A DNA stretch of 64,000 nucleotides from the sequence record OR083247.1; one strand, written 5' to 3'. How positions within the stretch are numbered: the first letter of the stretch is position 1; each line of letters starts with the position of its first letter. The notes under the pieces are model-generated. The model was not told where the DNA came from. It saw only the letters and a list, made by a program, of their open reading frames with translations, and ran no database searches. Shown piece after piece: positions 3,517 through 63,531 of this stretch. This stretch comes from Escherichia phage Bf23. The position numbers and the translations under genes are program-made.

Positions 3517-3945
3517 ATGTTCAATAATGTATTCTCTAAAGAAGCTAACCCAATTTTGGTTAATTTTTGGCGTACTCTTCCAGCCAACCTGTACAATGAG
3601 GCTATTAATGCTCTGAAAATATGGTGTGAGAATAATGAAATCTCCTTTGCTTTTAAGGGTGAGATTGAAGAAGCTCCCTGTATTGGTTTAATTGTGCAGG
3701 TAGAGGATGGTTTGGAAGAGATTGTCGGCTGGAAAGAGTTGGATGAAATGGGGTTGGTTTTTGCATTAAACTATAAGCTATTTATGCCCAATAAACACCG
3801 TATTGTTGTTAACTATAAAACCAGTGAATCTCCGGGCTTTCAAGTTAATGAACATTACGGTTGGTCTTACTCACCGGAAGAAGTAAATGATGGTATCCAA
3901 AAACTTCGTCGTTTTGGTTATCAAATTCCGGGTTTAACCGCCTAA
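3517..3945 (+). CDS. Hypothetical protein, tandem paralogue A (142 aa)
   Basis: Shares CIG..(E)L(D)..MGL(V/I)(F/V)ALN(Y/F)(K/S)LF(M/H)P and a C-terminal ..(I/Y)(Q/V)(I)PGL block with the next ORF. Confidence 0.55.
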   Translation: MFNNVFSKEANPILVNFWRTLPANLYNEAINALKIWCENNEISFAFKGEIEEAPCIGLIVQVEDGLEEIVGWKELDEMGLVFALNYKLFMPNKHRIVVNYKTSESPGFQVNEHYGWSYSPEEVNDGIQKLRRFGYQIPGLTA

Positions 3946-53977: not shown

Positions 53978-54215
53978 TATTATAGTTGCTTTTATTATCG
54001 GGATAATCGCGGGAGTTTTCGGAATGACTGCGGCTATTAACAAGCATCGTAAGTATACTGCGGAAGTATCGCGGGAGATTGCGGAGAGGGAGCGGAAGTT
54101 TGATGAGAAACGTGCGGAGTTTGAGCGGGAGTGGTCGGATGGATCTCGGGCGTCGCGGAAGAGATTTCGTGAGTTTAGACCTGAACATCGGTTTGATGAC
54201 CCTTCTATGCGCTAA
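53970..54215 (+). CDS. Small membrane protein with highly charged E/R/K-rich C-terminal helix (81 aa)
   Basis: 8-nt overlap with the upstream ORF; N-terminal helix IIVAFIIGIIAGVFGMTAAI, tail REIAERERKFDEKRAEFEREW; GAG/CGG-rich codons. Confidence 0.45.
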   Translation: MFSIIVAFIIGIIAGVFGMTAAINKHRKYTAEVSREIAERERKFDEKRAEFEREWSDGSRASRKRFREFRPEHRFDDPSMR

Positions 54216-54379
54216 TTAACTTTTTGCCAAATTTCATAAGATTACACATGAGGATGTGCTCACTGCCTCCGGCGAAAATACTTAGTCTGCTAACCGCCAC
54301 ACCCGTTATTATTACCATGCTAACTGTTTCACCCTGCAACCATTTTAATTGCAAGGTGAAACAATTTCAACCTTAATTA

Positions 54380-55114
54380 TTATGCGACTTTTAGTTTTTC
54401 AATATATTGTTGCGGGCTGCAACTATATTCTGCGCGTTCTTCCTCGGTCATACTTTCCCAACATAATTGCAAGCGATCGGCTAGGAACTGATAATCATTA
54501 TCATCGTCGAGCGATTCATCGATAAAGGTTTCACCTATCAATGTCACGCCGATTGATAGAATATCATTAATAGCTTGTGCGTCCAGCGTTTTAAACCCGT
54601 ATGATGCCGCCGCCGATAGCACGCCCTTATGATCATCAATCATCGTGAAATCAGCGTTTGGATATAGCTGTTTAAATAACTCAAAGTAATGGCTTTTATA
54701 TATAGCATCTTTACTGTGGTATATTTCGCTAACTTTATCAGCCTCAAAATATTTGTGTAGTGTGTCGCGGGAAAATACACGGATATTACTATCCCCACGC
54801 CCTCGCAGTCCTTGTTTGCGTAGGTAATAATAATCTGACTTACTCATCAGTCGAGCGGTACAAATAATGTTTAACGTGTTAACGTCATTCATACATTGGC
54901 GCATATATGTAACAAGCGGCAATAGTGTGTCCTGCATTATTAAATCATGTTTACATGCTTCATTCTTATATTTATTTAAATCTAAATTACCATCGTTATC
55001 AAAGCAAGGCGCTACGCGATGGAATGAGTTAACGATAGTGCCGTCCAGATCCCAGATCATGACGCGGGAAATATGCGGGAAATTACGGGTAATATTCGTT
55101 TTAACTTGATTCAT
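54380..55114 (-). CDS. dmp: 5'-deoxyribonucleotidase, HAD family, T5 Dmp-like (244 aa)
   Basis: HAD motif I in VMIWDLDGTIVNS; size and position among pre-early-type genes. Confidence 0.65.
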   Translation of the reverse strand: MNQVKTNITRNFPHISRVMIWDLDGTIVNSFHRVAPCFDNDGNLDLNKYKNEACKHDLIMQDTLLPLVTYMRQCMNDVNTLNIICTARLMSKSDYYYLRKQGLRGRGDSNIRVFSRDTLHKYFEADKVSEIYHSKDAIYKSHYFELFKQLYPNADFTMIDDHKGVLSAAASYGFKTLDAQAINDILSIGVTLIGETFIDESLDDDNDYQFLADRLQLCWESMTEEERAEYSCSPQQYIEKLKVA

Positions 55115-55188
55115 TTTGTTACGTTCTCCATTAAAGGGATTAAATTAAATTAATCCAGCCCACTGGATGGGCTGGGCTATTCCAGCTA

Positions 55189-55584
55189 TTAAAGACCATA
55201 AGCCAACGCATCAGCGATGACGGTAATATCTTCACCCGATACATCGGAACGGATGCCCGCGCATGTAAATACTTTTGCGCTCATTAGCTGATCATCAAGG
55301 CAAGCGGGACAAGGGGCAACTACTGCGAAAGCTAAACCTGATTTTACGGCATCGATGATAATCGTTTCTTGTTTCACCGTGTCAATATAAACGCCTTTCG
55401 CCTTGATGCGGCTGGATAACTTGCCCGTGGTATAGGCGAAAGTAGTGATCTGTAGCGCCTCGTTAAACTCGATTAAATCATCGACAACGTGACCGGCCTC
55501 AACGTGATACCGCTCACCATTAGAATAAACTAGGACGATAGAAGACTGAGCGCGATCGAATGGAATACGGTTAGAAATAGCCAT
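55189..55584 (-). CDS. Hypothetical protein (131 aa)
   Basis: ORF in the - strand pre-early chain; GC-richer codons. Confidence 0.5.
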   Translation of the reverse strand: MAISNRIPFDRAQSSIVLVYSNGERYHVEAGHVVDDLIEFNEALQITTFAYTTGKLSSRIKAKGVYIDTVKQETIIIDAVKSGLAFAVVAPCPACLDDQLMSAKVFTCAGIRSDVSGEDITVIADALAYGL

Positions 55585-55653
55585 GTTTATAACTCCAATT
55601 AATTTAATAAACTTTTATAGCGGCGGTATATTTCAACCGCCAACCTGATTTAT

Positions 55654-57318
55654 TTACGCAAAAAATTTACCATTCTTAAAGTCAATCAAGGTGCGCTGAC
55701 CGTTTGCATAGGTAATAACATGCGTTTGTGTCCAGCTTGACGCGCCAACGTTGTAACCCATGTCCAGACTACCAGACACGCCAGCGGTGTATACGCCGCC
55801 GTAAATACTGGCGGTATGAGTGTGCCCCGTGTTCAGTTTACCCAATTTCTTAAATTGCTTCGGATTGCCACGGCTCCCGTTAATGCCATTGTGACCGTGT
55901 ACGCCGCATTCAATGCCTGCAATCTTGAAAGATTGGTCAGTCGTTAGGAAAATGGCGTTAAACTCGCAACCTGCAACCTTGCGCAACGCATAATCTAGCA
56001 CGTTGAAAGTATCGTCTTTTTCTGCAATAGCTCCATAAATCGCGGCATTAAGGCGGTGATATAGTTCGGCGTTGGCTGGATCGTCTTTGATGTTAGCATT
56101 ACGATCATCCAGCCAACGGGATAGCGCCAGATCGTGGTTTGATTCTACGATGATCGTTTGAGAAAAATCGCGCTCCATTGATTCCAACACGCGACCGGTA
56201 TCGATAAGATCATCCAGAACTTTATCACGTCCGGCGGCGTATTGTTTTGCTAGGAATACACCCGAAGCGCGATTGTGATGGTTGCGTGATGTAAAATCAT
56301 GCACGTCATGGACAAATTGATATTTTGGTTTAAGAATATCAAGCAAGCTATTTTCGCCAGCCCATGACGCAGCGGCGCAATCATCATCCAGTTTTTCAGC
56401 GTGGACGTCGCCATATTGTAAACCTAAAACGTGCCCCGTTGTTTCATAGCATCCGGCGGGAGTAGCGCAAACATTCAGATCGTAAAAAACGCCGCTTTCG
56501 TCCATAGTTTCAAGCTGGCGCACAAAAAACTCACCGTCCTCGTCGAACTCGACAACAAGCGCACCGAAATTATGCAACGCTTCCGCTTTCTGTCCTGCTT
56601 TCTGCTGGATGTAGTTTTTTAGCGTTGCCGTGCCGGTTGAATACATACGGCGCACTACTTCACCTTTTAAAGCTGGGACGCTCTCGGCGGTGATTTTAGC
56701 CGCTCCAATTGCCAGACCTTCAAGGTTGAGCGCGGTTGCAGTTTCAGCAAATCCAGAAAGCGGATAATCTGCGGTAGGTAAAACGTTAATTTCAGCCATG
56801 AAAGCAAAGCGGCGATTATTCAAAAACACGTTTTTATTGCAGATATATTTGTCAAATGCGGAATCATATTTGATTCCTTCGGCGCCCTCGCCATTTTGAA
56901 AACCGTTTTTGTTATAAATAAACTTGCTAACCAGCAAATCAGCGCCGATATATTTAGCAAATTGCTCCAGTGAGGCTAAAAAGTTTTTATGCGGGAAAGT
57001 ATTATTCTGAATCGACGTAATAATAAAGCGTTTACCCTGCTTTACTTCCCAGCTTTCAACCGTGCTAGAAACAATCCCCGCCGCTTCTGGGCGCTCATCG
57101 TTTTTAATGGCTTTTGCTACTTTCGCCGCTTTCGGTTTAGCTGGTTTATTTGCTTCCAACCAATCACAAATCGCGGTCGAGTGTTTTGTAGTATCATAGA
57201 CCGCCTTTGATATATCGTCGCAGACTTCCAGTTTAGTGGCGCGCAGACGTTTACCATAGAAATTAAAGTCAGCGGCCATTTTCAGGATAACGGTTTGTTT
57301 TTCTGCGGAAATAATCAT
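55654..57318 (-). CDS. A1: Pre-early protein A1-like (554 aa), putative metallophosphoesterase-type nuclease
   Basis: Size close to that recalled for T5 A1; metallophosphatase-like His clusters (..GVHGHNGINGSRG.., ..GHTHTASIYGG..); neighbours dmp and A2-like genes. Confidence 0.65.
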   Translation of the reverse strand: MIISAEKQTVILKMAADFNFYGKRLRATKLEVCDDISKAVYDTTKHSTAICDWLEANKPAKPKAAKVAKAIKNDERPEAAGIVSSTVESWEVKQGKRFIITSIQNNTFPHKNFLASLEQFAKYIGADLLVSKFIYNKNGFQNGEGAEGIKYDSAFDKYICNKNVFLNNRRFAFMAEINVLPTADYPLSGFAETATALNLEGLAIGAAKITAESVPALKGEVVRRMYSTGTATLKNYIQQKAGQKAEALHNFGALVVEFDEDGEFFVRQLETMDESGVFYDLNVCATPAGCYETTGHVLGLQYGDVHAEKLDDDCAAASWAGENSLLDILKPKYQFVHDVHDFTSRNHHNRASGVFLAKQYAAGRDKVLDDLIDTGRVLESMERDFSQTIIVESNHDLALSRWLDDRNANIKDDPANAELYHRLNAAIYGAIAEKDDTFNVLDYALRKVAGCEFNAIFLTTDQSFKIAGIECGVHGHNGINGSRGNPKQFKKLGKLNTGHTHTASIYGGVYTAGVSGSLDMGYNVGASSWTQTHVITYANGQRTLIDFKNGKFFA

Positions 57319-57414
57319 AGTAATAAAGCTCCATTAAAGGGATTAAAAACGTTTGTTATTGGCAAATATTGCCAAATATAACGCCTTGAATAATAGGCGT
57401 TATAATTTGCAACA

Positions 57415-57612
57415 TTAATTTAAAGGCATAAGGCTAGAACTAACACCACAAGCAACGGCGGCAATAAAACAAATCAGACCTAAACGCTTTGCCAATTTAG
57501 ACTTACGCTTAAAATAATATGAATCTAAATCATTTTGAAAGTATGCAAATAATAATGAGGCCGCCATAATAAATAAGCCTAGAATTAACGATTCAGTGGG
57601 GTAAAAGATCAT
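57415..57612 (-). CDS. Small membrane protein (65 aa; start moved to ATG 57612 with RBS GGAG)
   Basis: Two hydrophobic helices; the upstream in-frame extension to 57660 would read through a perfect 20-bp palindrome. Confidence 0.4.
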   Translation of the reverse strand: MIFYPTESLILGLFIMAASLLFAYFQNDLDSYYFKRKSKLAKRLGLICFIAAVACGVSSSLMPLN

Positions 57613-57669
57613 TTTAATAACTCCAGTCAAAGGGAAATTATAGTGGGGAATATTCCCCACTAATTAAAT

Positions 57670-58086
57670 TTATTCACCTGCGGCTTGTTTTACTTCATCG
57701 GCAACGCCTAACAGTTGCGCCACGGCGTCCAGCGTTTCTAACTTTGCGCTTTCCAGACTTGCCAAATCGTCGGCGTCTTTGATAATGCCGGAATCAATAG
57801 CATGTTTAGCGATAACGCGTACATAATGAGCTTTGCGAATTGAACTACCGCCGCCAACTTTGCGCGGCTTATCGCTTTTCTGATACGCTTTCGCGCTGGT
57901 CAATTTTGAGCGAACAGACACGGGAGAAGCCGCGCCAACTGTTTTAGCAATCTCTTTCAGGCCGTCGCTGTTGGCGAACTCCAAGCCGTTTTCGTTGATC
58001 AACTGTTGATACATGGTAACAGCCTGTTGGGTGTTTTCTTCATTCCAAGCAAATTTTGCGGATTTTTCGGTTTTAACGTTAGCCAT
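57670..58086 (-). CDS. A2: Pre-early protein A2-like, putative DNA-binding protein (138 aa)
   Basis: Size and position relative to the A1-like gene; Lys/Ala-rich. Confidence 0.55.
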   Translation of the reverse strand: MANVKTEKSAKFAWNEENTQQAVTMYQQLINENGLEFANSDGLKEIAKTVGAASPVSVRSKLTSAKAYQKSDKPRKVGGGSSIRKAHYVRVIAKHAIDSGIIKDADDLASLESAKLETLDAVAQLLGVADEVKQAAGE

Positions 58087-58184
58087 GATTATAACTCCTA
58101 TTGAATTAATTTAAGGGATAAGATTAACATAATGTTAATCGTTATATACCCCAAACTACTGGGGTATATAAAGTTAACACTAAG

Positions 58185-58436
58185 TTATAAAACAGCTTCC
58201 CATTTTTCGTTGCGTTGAACAACCTTTACAACGTCGCCGGATTTAACGCGAACGCTAAAAACGGTTTTGCCGTTGTTACTACGTTCATTTTCAGCGTATA
58301 CCGCGTCGATTGTATCAAACGGCATAAGCGCCACACCTTTAATGCGTTCGGTTTTTCCGGTTAATTCGTCCGTTTTAGTAACGAAAGGAATAAAAACGGA
58401 TTGACCAATTTTAGGCGCGGTAATAACGTTTTTCAT
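58185..58436 (-). CDS. Hypothetical protein (83 aa)
   Basis: ORF with RBS AGGAG; leader contains a 10-bp-stem hairpin. Confidence 0.45.
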   Translation of the reverse strand: MKNVITAPKIGQSVFIPFVTKTDELTGKTERIKGVALMPFDTIDAVYAENERSNNGKTVFSVRVKSGDVVKVVQRNEKWEAVL

Positions 58437-58663
58437 AGTATAAACTCCTAGTTATTTGGGGATTGTTCCGCATTACCTGCTAGAAAGTAGCAGGTAATAA
58501 GAAAAAATCCGCTCGCCAATATAATCAATTTAAAGAACTCCACTCAGGCCGCTATATCCCAGTTAGGGGGCGGGACACATTATGGTAAGTGCCGACCGTC
58601 AAATTGTATCAAGTTATCGCTCTTATCGAACTGGGTACATCTTAAAGCCTATCGGCTAGGGTG

Positions 58664-58867
58664 TCAAACAATTTTTTGCAGTTTTTTATGATTTTCTTTC
58701 AGGTCAATCATAATATTTCGCCAGATCATTTCCAGACCTTGCTGGCGGCCTTTCTTGTACTGCGTGAATCTATATCTTACGGATTGTTGAGCTACTGTCA
58801 ACAATTTTTTAGTAGTAACATCTAATTTTTTAGCTGGTTTACCAGTGATCAAAAGCGTTTGTTTCAT
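58664..58867 (-). CDS. Small basic protein (67 aa) bracketed by 24-bp inverted repeats
   Basis: Lys/Arg/Gln-rich ORF with RBS AAGGA; inverted repeats at 58633-58654 and 58904-58927. Confidence 0.4.
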   Translation of the reverse strand: MKQTLLITGKPAKKLDVTTKKLLTVAQQSVRYRFTQYKKGRQQGLEMIWRNIMIDLKENHKKLQKIV

Positions 58868-59320
58868 ATCTGCGATTCCTTATATAATTGATAAGTTTAC
58901 CGCCGATAGACTTTAAGATGTACCCAATTTTTAAAGAGCGTGGCGGTAAACTTCCCGCCGTGTAGTTCGTCATTGCCGCCCTACGAGATAAATAATAGGG
59001 GATTCCCAAAAATGGCGCAACCTTATTTTTGTAAAGAAACGTAAAGAAAGCAAATACTCGCAAGGTGTCCGGCGATTGCCCAAGTTTAAAGGAAACGGGC
59101 GCACGAATACCATAAAACCCAGCAGGTTGGCAAGTAATTTTTTCATTTATATTTGCCTTACCCTACTTGACAAAATCTAAAAAGCTCGTGGTAGCGATAA
59201 ACGAGGGTAGGCAATGCAATGGCCTGGCTAAAACTTTCATCGCGTTCTAGGGCGTTTTAGGCGCATTCTAGCCTTGTTGATAACTTATCCCCAGAAGCAA
59301 AAATGAAATTTTCCTAGTTA

Positions 59321-59351
59321 TCCACTTGACTTTTATTTTCCAGTGGATAAC
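59321..59351. promoter_or_regulatory. Inverted pair of DnaA-box-like sequences
   Basis: AGTTATCCACT..AGTGGATAACT around a 14-bp AT-rich centre. Confidence 0.5.
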
Positions 59352-59494
59352 TACTTATTTTATGAAATAAATTAATTGACTTTTATTTGTTAGTATGCAT
59401 CGGAAAGATAGCAGACTAATAATTGCTAGGATGATAATCATGCTGGTGGATTGTAACGGCTTAAACTATCAGCGGACTATTAATCACGGAAAAT

Positions 59495-59545
59495 CTCGTT
59501 AGCTAACTAACTATTTCATGATGTATAATATACATATAAATTAAT
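59495..59545 (+). promoter_or_regulatory. Early-family sigma70 promoter facing the + strand cassette
   Basis: TATAAT (59524-59529) with the family leader ATATAAATTAATGAGAAATAA; -35 is weak (AGCTAA). Confidence 0.5.
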
Positions 59546-59633
59546 GAGAAATAATAATTATAATAAATAATAACTACAGTAAATAATAACTATAAGAAAC
59601 TATCGGCCTAAGTGAGAACCACTATCATTTAAG

Positions 59634-59741
59634 TTATCCACAAGTTTATTAACAGCACAAAATGATTTGACACGATAGGCGGCGATATAAAGACTTATCC
59701 ACAGACTTATCCACAGGTTATCCTACTGTATAAATATACAG
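59634..59741. promoter_or_regulatory. Cluster of three consensus DnaA boxes plus a LexA-box-like palindrome
   Basis: TTATCCACA at 59634-59642, 59695-59703 and 59707-59715; CTGTATAAATATACAG (CTGT-N8-ACAG) at 59726-59741. Confidence 0.6.
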
Positions 59742-60007
59742 GGTAAATGGGTAGTGTTAACAACTGCAATCAATTTTAAGCGGCCTAAAACGCTTTCTAA
59801 CGAGCTAAATGCGGTGGGGTAATATTAAAGTAAAGCCTTCACCCGTCGCCCTGGTGGCTTCGCCGTGTTTTGCTCTTTACTATACCGCTGCGCGGTTAAC
59901 ATAAAAATAAGCGTTAGGCAAGGAAAATAAAAAGGTAAAATAATATTTGCCCCTAGAAAGAAAATACCTTTATCATTCACTCACCGATTAACGAGGGAGG
60001 CCAACAA

Positions 60008-63210: not shown

Positions 63211-63320
63211 TACTGTATAAATATACAGTAGAATAACTTGGGGATAAGTCTGTGGATAACGCCTCAAAATGGCTGGGATTCTGTCAAGTCAAATCGTGCT
63301 GTTAATAAGTCTGTGGATAA
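63211..63320. promoter_or_regulatory. LexA-box-like palindrome plus two consensus DnaA boxes, in inverted orientation relative to 59634-59741
   Basis: TACTGTATAAATATACAGTA at 63211-63230; TGTGGATAA (reverse complement of TTATCCACA) at 63251-63259 and 63312-63320. Confidence 0.6.
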
Positions 63321-63351
63321 CTTAAATAACAGTGTTTCTCACTTCCGTTTT

Positions 63352-63507
63352 TAAATGCGAATCATTATCATTCGCATTTCACTATCTAACCGATAATCAT
63401 TCCACTTTTTAAATGAGATTGATTCTCATTTCACTTTCTAAATGCGAATTATTATCATTCTCATTCCGCTTTTTAAATGAGAATGATTCTTATTATCATT
63501 CTCATTT
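63352..63507. repeat. Cluster of four related palindromic repeats (AAATG(C/A)GAAT..ATTC(G/T)CATTT units)
   Basis: Four units, each an inverted repeat with 10-13-bp arms around a short AT spacer, at about 63352-63380, 63411-63432, 63440-63468 and 63474-63507. Confidence 0.7.
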
Positions 63508-63531
63508 AGCGCAGGGCAATTGCCCTGCGCT
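63508..63531. repeat. Perfect 24-bp GC-rich palindrome containing two GCGC tetramers
   Basis: AGCGCAGGGCAATTGCCCTGCGCT, followed by TTTTG on the + strand. Confidence 0.7.

Follow-up and report, generated by a model that had tools for sequence, protein, structure and literature searches.

Conserved stem-loops in the leader and intercistronic gaps of the leftward pre-early operon of phage Bf23

Hairpins of the leftward pre-early operon

We analysed a stretch of 64,000 nucleotides from Escherichia phage Bf23 (sequence record OR083247.1), hereafter called the window, in which three palindromes or hairpins around the gene A2 had been predicted from the letters alone to be operators or RNA stability elements rather than terminators (the original prediction). 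By sequence comparison, the part of the window from 54.3 to 64 kb is the terminal-repeat block (first-step-transfer, pre-early) of a T5-like phage (Tequintavirus). In T5, pre-early expression governs host takeover and the second step of DNA injection. With 2 kb of sequence around the palindromes as query, 417 phage records were matched, at a best identity of ∼92%, and the A2 protein is 100% identical to A2 of phage vB_EcoS_VAH1 and 93% identical to that of T5. The minus-strand genes stand in the T5 order, save that the counterpart of T5.003 is missing from the window (Table 1). The genes beside the palindromes had been assigned rightly; A2, the 65-aa membrane protein gene and the 83-aa homologue of T5.007 are all on the minus strand.

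On this transcribed strand, the operon runs from the promoter P-D/E20 through T5.007, A2, the 65-aa gene, A1 and the 131-aa gene to dmp. The promoter, TTGACA-17-TAAGAT, is identical in sequence in T5 and lies at the place annotated there as P-D/E20. A promoter scan found only two good minus-strand promoters near the hairpins, this one (58667-58639) and another at 58801-58774. As judged from its sequence and position, the former is the promoter that drives the predicted transcript holding all the hairpins. The transcribed strand of this single operon carries all three flagged palindromes: the leader of ∼195 nt holds hairpin 3, the gap between T5.007 and A2 holds hairpin 2, and the gap between A2 and the 65-aa gene holds hairpin 1.

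All three elements were present at the predicted places. The 20-bp palindrome proposed at 57642-57661, between A2 and the 65-aa gene, is the core of a perfect palindrome of 22 bp; as RNA, it reads UAGUGGGGA-AUAU-UCCCCACUA, followed by AUAAUUUCCCUUU and then by the Shine-Dalgarno (SD) sequence of the 65-aa gene (folding dG −15.2, z −3.0). The arms quoted for hairpin 2, TATACCCC (58145-58152) and GGGGTATA (58161-58168), fall inside the range given for it, and the real stem is longer, with 12 bp. Hairpin 3 (58472-58498), described as a 10-bp stem, has 11 bp and a 5-nt loop. It stands on an imperfect lower stem, GGAUU.UU/AA.AAUCC, and the whole composite has arms of 23 nt that are 83% complementary (dG −24.9, z −6.0). 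Within the 5′ leader of the 83-aa gene, this hairpin is separated from the inferred P-D/E20 start by ∼120 nt and from the ATG that follows it by 23 nt. Folding z-scores over the hairpins range from −3.0 to −6.0. The hairpins are positioned either in the leader or 7–14 nt past stop codons, just beyond a terminating ribosome, and none of the ribosome-binding sites is blocked by them.

We counted perfect hairpins (stem ≥9, loop ≤10) over the 64 kb and found 21, compared to 3.1 ± 1.6 in 30 dinucleotide shuffles; five of the 21 fall within the 1.1 kb between 57377 and 58498. A chance origin of the palindromes is excluded. A scan of positions 54000-60000 with the Rfam 15 covariance models gave nothing relevant at E ≤ 1, and no copy of hairpin 1 was found elsewhere in the window even when three mismatches were allowed. 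A dispersed repeat element, of the repetitive extragenic palindromic (REP) or bacterial interspersed mosaic element type or like a miniature inverted-repeat transposable element, was ruled out, hairpin 1 being single-copy and each hairpin having its own sequence. A TTG-initiated open reading frame of 26 codons across hairpin 3 in the leader was also rejected, as its frame is broken by 2-nt and 4-nt indels in relatives.

The elements had been annotated in part. Hairpin 1 is identical in sequence to 'palindrome B' of T5 (3697-3718), which is listed in AY587007 without function or strand (Wang et al. 2005), and an equivalent of another type (type B, see below) is labelled 'terminator' in the record of phage Shivani. 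The three T5 records examined have no annotation at hairpins 2 and 3. We found no study of these elements in the literature on T5 pre-early terminators, hairpins, RNase III (ribonuclease III) or transcript mapping; the analyses of Davison cover repeat regions further right (T5 4682 onward), not these gaps. The T5 annotation of hairpin 1, the palindromes at 58122-58140 and 57377-57404 and the further gap hairpins listed in Table 1 go beyond what the original prediction had listed.

Table 1. Genes, promoter and hairpins of the leftward pre-early operon (window coordinates)
Feature	Position	Strand	Description
67-aa T5.008 homologue		-	First in the listed pre-early gene order; followed by the promoter
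Promoter TTGACA-17-TAAGAT	58639..58667	-	10/12 match; equivalent to T5 pre-early promoter P-D/E20
Hairpin 3 (composite)	58460..58510	-	Upper stem 58472-58498, 11 bp, 5-nt loop
83-aa T5.007 homologue	58185-58436	-	
Hairpin 2	58142..58171	-	12-bp stem (TTATATACCCCA/TGGGGTATATAA), 6-nt loop; 13 nt after stop of 83-aa gene
Small AT-rich hairpin	58122..58140	-	GAUUAAC-N3-6-GUUAAUC; directly 3′ of hairpin 2, upstream of A2 ribosome-binding site
A2	57670-58086	-	Stop codon 57670-57672
Hairpin 1	57641..57662	-	Perfect 22-bp palindrome TAGTGGGGAATATTCCCCACTA; 7 nt after A2 stop
65-aa membrane protein gene	57415-57612	-	
Hairpin 0	57377..57404	-	65-aa/A1 gap; stem AUAACGCC(U)/(A)GGCGUUAU
A1	55654-57318	-	
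Hairpin GGCGGU-N8-ACCGCC	55621..55640	-	A1/131-aa gap
131-aa protein gene	between A1 and dmp	-	
Palindrome A hairpin	55155..55175	-	131-aa/dmp gap; 'palindrome A' of AY587007; same intercistronic series
dmp	54380-55114	-	
Long hairpin without U-tract	54326..54362	-	Just downstream of dmp, inner edge of terminal repeat

Pairing, sequence turnover and strand preference in relatives

The homologous regions of relatives (labelled with L-numbers) were gathered from IMG/VR, from metagenomes and from phages in GenBank. The proteins on either side served as anchors to cut out four spacers, with 29–43 distinct sequences for each. The check that had been proposed for the palindromes, conservation in related phages, showed that ∼40 distinct relatives keep the elements, as base-paired structures rather than as sequences. 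For hairpin 3, 95.5% of the cells are paired among 19 distinct sequences of the trimmed element, as against 28–55% in slid controls. Eight of its pairs are altered on both sides, a number that was reached in none of 500 shuffles, and RNAalifold also predicts this fold. Its site is occupied by unrelated hairpins elsewhere: AAUAGCGUUU/GAGGCGCUAUU in the L038 group and GUUAACACUCU/AGAGUGUUAAC in Klebsiella phages, the latter with U·G variants of its own.

The helix of hairpin 2 behaves similarly, with 93.4% of the cells paired among 24 distinct sequences, or 94.3% if the small helix beside it is counted as well. At one position of the stem, all four Watson-Crick pairs occur (C-G in eight of these sequences, A-U in seven, U-A in five and G-C in four), with no unpaired cell. 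U·G wobbles are present, and the same stem was obtained from RNAalifold.

Hairpin 1 has a single compensatory pair, U-A to C-G (AGCGGGG..CCCCGCU in the three sequences of L036-38). Its central bases vary among relatives (AATATT, ATTATT, AATACT, AATAAT) and, therefore, the middle of the palindrome is a loop. At this site, a longer, non-homologous hairpin, called type B, is present in about half of the close relatives, and Klebsiella phages have a third module. The choice of module is independent of A2 similarity; L003, whose A2 is 99% identical, has type B, and unrelated modules occur among phages whose A2 proteins are 93–99% identical. Hairpin 1 was also considered as a deeply conserved sequence motif, as Vibrio phage Quinn has UUAGGGGGAAUUAUCCCCCUAA after A2, but Vibrio L107 differs at the top on the same base. 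We rejected this candidate and treated the likeness in Quinn as a structural or convergent resemblance. In the Klebsiella and Vibrio T5-like phages, where A2 is 40–64% identical, a strong hairpin is found in most gaps of the A2-A1-dmp operon that are longer than ∼40 nt.

The loops are less constant. Their length varies from 5 to 13 nt in hairpin 3 and from 6 to 10 nt in hairpin 2, and some relatives carry the reverse complement of the loop at both hairpins (L010, L029, L058, L113, L046 and L050 were compared). The loop of hairpin 3 (58483-58487) is CUUUC in the window and GAAAG in phage Bas33 and others, with the stem unchanged; the loop of hairpin 2 is UGAAAUAU in L046 and UUAUUUCA in L050. 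From the sequences, these flips look like hairpin-mediated inversion at the DNA level. As the loops are flipped with their stems kept, loop orientation is neutral and, given also the variable loop length, neither loop identity nor half-site spacing is constrained.

We also compared the folding of the two strands. In most of the variants, the mRNA-sense strand folded better than the antisense strand, by 1.8 kcal/mol (hairpin 3 spacer), 3.4 kcal/mol (hairpin 2) and 3.3 kcal/mol (hairpin 0), with shuffled-composition controls at ∼0 for all three; these figures come from related, non-independent sequences, and their direction is consistent. G·U pairs were ∼3-fold commoner in the sense-strand folds. 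Because the pairing is preserved while the sequence turns over, and because of this strand asymmetry, the comparison points to selection on RNA structure in the pre-early transcript, contrary to what is expected of duplex-DNA operators.

Possible roles in stability, termination and processing of the pre-early message

We therefore consider the palindromes, with somewhat better than even confidence, to be the DNA images of RNA stem-loops that act on the stability or processing of segments of the leftward pre-early polycistronic mRNA. Of the roles proposed originally, that of RNA stability elements is the one that agrees best with the covariation, the strand asymmetry and the position of the hairpins; that they are RNA elements is upheld, and the stability role is what we infer. 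The host sigma-70 promoters P-H22/P-D/E20 would start an mRNA comprising the leader, T5.007, A2, the 65-aa gene, A1, the 131-aa gene and dmp, in which stable helices would bound the segments. Exonucleases moving 3′ to 5′ would be halted by the hairpins where the upstream cistron ends, and the 5′ leader would be shielded or marked by hairpin 3. Cistrons with different lifetimes, and hence different protein yields, would result from endonucleolytic cleavage, either within the AU-rich spacers or within the longer interrupted helices.

Published RNA-seq data of phage Bas33, the only expression data that we found, bear on this proposal. Bas33 (L113, MZ501074 102600-107900) is a Tequintavirus in which the equivalent hairpins are present. 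The values are gene-level ('max group mean') at 20 min, a late time, and were converted to the untreated condition by the reported fold changes. In operon order, the approximate transcripts per million (TPM; supplementary file 2 of PMC13250531) are 12199 (T5.007 homologue), 2647 (A2), 973, 2148 (A1), 650, 2155 and 1392 (dmp). The T5.007 homologue, bas33_0179, thus gives the most abundant message of the leftward pre-early operon, 4.6-fold above A2, which is itself 2.7-fold above the next gene. The levels are non-monotonic along the operon and, therefore, serial termination alone is insufficient to account for them. The T5.007 segment, which has hairpin 3 on one side and hairpin 2 on the other, reaches by far the highest level, and this fits with segmental stabilisation. 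T5.007, a gene of unknown function, is among the few consistently conserved pre-early genes according to Davison.

The hairpins resemble the intercistronic stabilisers of bacteria, such as the REP hairpins of malE-malF and the hairpins of the puf operon, in that a stem-loop stands just past the ribosome footprint at the stop codon with no U-tract, and in that cistrons of one operon have unequal mRNA levels (in Bas33). In the window, stable stem-loops of the mRNA strand were found shortly after stop codons and are conserved as structure, as expected of such stabilisers. They differ from the REP-type stabilisers in that they are single-copy and belong to no dispersed repeat family; protection from exonucleases is, for the phage hairpins, a presumed property.

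Several points weigh against this reading. The compared sequences share ancestry, and the shuffle statistics overstate their independence. For hairpin 1, the strand difference of 1.8 is no larger than composition predicts (control 1.3). G·T mismatches are tolerated in DNA hairpins too, and the hairpins could conceivably have a role in single-stranded DNA. The Bas33 data are of a late time point, of a different phage and at gene level, and in them bas33_0181, the homologue of the 65-aa gene, is low in spite of its 3′ hairpin. The rise at A1 could also be explained by a 'putative promoter' annotated upstream of A1 in AY692264, which is weak and poorly conserved. No minus-strand consensus match to internal promoters was found beside hairpins 2 and 0, where variable spacing makes the candidate hexamers unworkable. 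Finally, the post-transcriptional action of the hairpins, and with it their function, is something that we infer.

The hairpins, and mainly hairpin 1, could instead be leaky intrinsic terminators or attenuators that leave T5.007 and A2 in excess over A1 and dmp, a possibility that we regard as rather doubtful. Their stems of 9–12 bp with at least four G-C pairs are GC-rich stem-loops of the kind that intrinsic terminators have, placed downstream of genes, and the 9-bp stem of hairpin 1 is followed by the partly U-rich, borderline tail AUAAUUUCCCUUU (AUUUUCCCC in L013 and L028). Equivalents of hairpin 1 in distant phages have a clear U-tract; a canonical hairpin and U-tract stand right after A2 in L104 and L105 (A2 55–58% identical) and in Vibrio phage 70E35.6. 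The 'terminator' label of the type-B equivalent in Shivani and the drops in Bas33 from T5.007 to A2 and from A2 to the next gene would also agree with attenuation. However, the scan for terminators on the minus strand detected none of the three hairpins. The lack of a U-tract on the transcribed strand, as noted in the original prediction, was confirmed: the 8 nt after the stems of hairpins 1, 2 and 3 contain 4, 2 and 0 T, compared to 6–7 at the canonical terminators of the window (10179, 26435, 40095, 45098 and 61574), so that the tract is broken after hairpin 1 and missing after the other two. All three hairpins are located inside the transcription unit, upstream of essential genes, and termination at hairpin 3, in the leader before the first gene, would abolish the expression of the operon. 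The renewed rise of the Bas33 levels at A1 and at bas33_0184 is impossible by pure attenuation. The claim that the palindromes are not terminators, thus, holds for hairpins 2 and 3, which are unlikely to terminate transcription, having no U-tract and lying inside the operon or its leader, and holds only weakly for hairpin 1, which may in addition terminate a fraction of the transcripts.

RNase III provides another explanation, by analogy to bacteriophage T7. The early region of T7 has RNase III sites (R0.3, R0.5, R1, R1.1 and R1.3) at which the early polycistronic RNA is cut into stable monocistronic messages, and the enzyme needs a helix of roughly two turns (∼20 bp) that is often interrupted by an internal loop. 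Processing sites of this kind might be formed by the longer interrupted helices of the pre-early message, a reading that we consider unlikely. Hairpin 0 and hairpin 3 (taken with its lower stem) would be candidates, as would the type-B form of hairpin 1 and, possibly, hairpin 2 together with its flanks. In favour of this reading, the main helix, measured with its flanks across the relatives, has a median length of 21 bp in hairpins 3 and 0 and of 24 bp in hairpin 2. The layout also parallels the T7 early region: host RNA polymerase transcribes a polycistronic early mRNA from strong host-type promoters, the leader and every intercistronic gap have one structured site each, there is no U-tract, and cistron abundances are segmental (in Bas33). 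On the other hand, the helices have no sequence similarity to the T7 sites. Hairpin 1 is too short (median 10 bp; only 9–11 bp in the window). If hairpin 2 is extended outwards, the helix competes with the small AT-rich hairpin, and it is the latter that shows covariation in distant relatives. No covariation supports the lower stems, whose outer pairs either never change or are mismatched; at pair 6-50 of hairpin 3, 8 of the 19 sequences, that of the window included, have U·C. A literature search found no paper on RNase III and T5.

A broader form of the same idea, to which we likewise give a low probability, is that T5-like phages cut their pre-early message in the manner of T7 at interrupted helices of ∼20–25 bp, located in the leader and between cistrons, by host RNase III or another endonuclease, the apical hairpins protecting the ends. 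If this were true, cutting into segments would determine how much of each host-takeover protein is made relative to the others and how long it lasts, the hairpin-flanked T5.007 message would be a deliberately long-lived transcript, and there would be a handle on the shut-off of pre-early expression.

It is improbable that the flagged hairpins are RNA operators, bound by a pre-early or host protein that tunes the translation or decay of the neighbouring cistrons, for instance as a part of the A1-dependent shut-off of pre-early expression. Pieces nearby are indeed conserved in sequence, namely the GAUUAAC/GUUAAUC arms, the AUAACGCC/GGCGUUAU stem with UUGGCAAU.UUGCC, and a box, AUCCCUUUAAU, just upstream of several SD sequences. 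However, the flagged hairpins themselves differ freely between relatives in both sequence and loop, and unrelated modules take their place in some, unlike targets of specific recognition; moreover, no candidate RNA-binding protein was identified.

The operators of the original prediction, i.e. DNA sites for A2 or another pre-early DNA-binding protein, are very improbable in spite of the perfect palindrome of hairpin 1 and of the neighbouring gene A2 encoding a DNA-binding protein, as no conservation of half-site sequence was found among relatives sharing A2 (there are compensatory changes that keep the pairing, and unrelated palindromes at the hairpin 1 site, as in L003), no fixed half-site spacing was found for hairpins 2 and 3, whose loops vary in length and are inverted, the G·U-type changes favour one strand, and no minus-strand promoter overlaps or adjoins hairpins 1 and 2, hairpin 3 being ∼120 nt from the inferred start.

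Should the hairpins set the mRNA stability of single cistrons, as in the reading that we favour, the unequal levels of T5.007, A2 and A1 would be explained. For annotation, the label 'operator' should not be used, and 'terminator' only with caution. Intercistronic mRNA hairpins are well known as a class, and the conceptual gain is modest; these stem-loops, conserved in the leader and between the cistrons of the T5 pre-early mRNA, are a new, in part already annotated example of a familiar element.

Other elements of the operon and the terminal repeat

The small AT-rich hairpin next to hairpin 2 is in the window the palindrome GATTAACATAATGTTAATC, i.e. GATTAACAT-A-ATGTTAATC. Close relatives all have the same arms around a centre of 3 to 6 nt. 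Distant ones show covariation between the arms, which read GAAUAAC/GUUAUUC in L055 and L105 and GAUUAAC/GUUAGUC in L104. A switch between alternative pairings, in which the segment 3′ of hairpin 2 would pair either 5′ or downstream, was rejected, as the distant relatives support the small downstream hairpin only.

The stem sequence of hairpin 0 is kept even in Klebsiella phages, with a loop of ∼6 to 24 nt. Its variants include a double compensatory change (L006/L007) and U·G pairs (L008/L009, L016/L039, L035 and L045). The flanks UUGCAAAU and AUUUGGCAA can pair to give a helix of ∼19 bp, and the spacer is more conserved than the adjoining 65-aa gene. Hairpin 0 is followed by the palindrome UUGGCAAUAUUUGCCAA at 57359-57375 (near-perfect form TTGGCAAATATTGCCAA).

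The equivalent of the long hairpin downstream of dmp (54326-54362) is a putative rho-independent terminator in AY587007. This hairpin is ∼100 nt from the start of the T5 terminal repeat, a distance inferred from T5 coordinates (the end of dmp being T5 position 124).

A box, ATCCCTTTAAT, is located just upstream of the GGAG SD sequences of dmp, A1 and A2 (55130-55140, 57333-57343 and 58109-58119, minus strand), the A2 copy having one mismatch. The looser pattern TCCC...GGAG...ATG has six matches in the 64 kb, three of them in the leftward operon and one in the rightward pre-early operon, and similar (A/U)CCC...AA motifs precede start sites in the Klebsiella and Vibrio relatives. The box may act as a signal for translation or mark a site of cleavage.

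On the plus strand, a promoter-like sequence, TTGCCA-18-AATAAT (10/12), is present at 57489-57518 inside the 65-aa gene, ∼120 nt before hairpin 1; its −35 hexamer is not conserved in T5. Read on this strand, hairpin 1 is followed by AUUAAAUUUAUU and was flagged as terminator-like by the scan. It is conceivable that a short antisense RNA covers the beginning of the 65-aa membrane protein gene.

The 67-aa T5.008 homologue is flanked by the two copies of a 24-nt inverted repeat with one mismatch (58617-58660 and 58896-58935), the counterpart of 'inverted repeat A/A'' in AY587007. Its left copy overlaps the promoter TTGACA-17-TAAGAT; its right copy has a weak plus-strand match, TTTACC-12-TAAGAT, with a spacing too short for a promoter. 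A perfect inverted repeat of 12 bp lies at 58893-58904/58942-58953. Further right, the inverted repeat TAGTTATCCACTTGA/TCCAGTGGATAACTA at 59276-59353 holds DnaA-box-like TTATCCAC motifs, which match the DnaA boxes described in the T5 repeat regions by Davison (bioRxiv 10.1101/866236). The terminal repeat of the window abuts unrelated DNA on its left; therefore, it is either the right-hand copy of the repeat or the product of a collapsed assembly. Five long perfect palindromes or hairpins with stems of 9–14 bp are clustered in the non-coding stretch 63211-63531.

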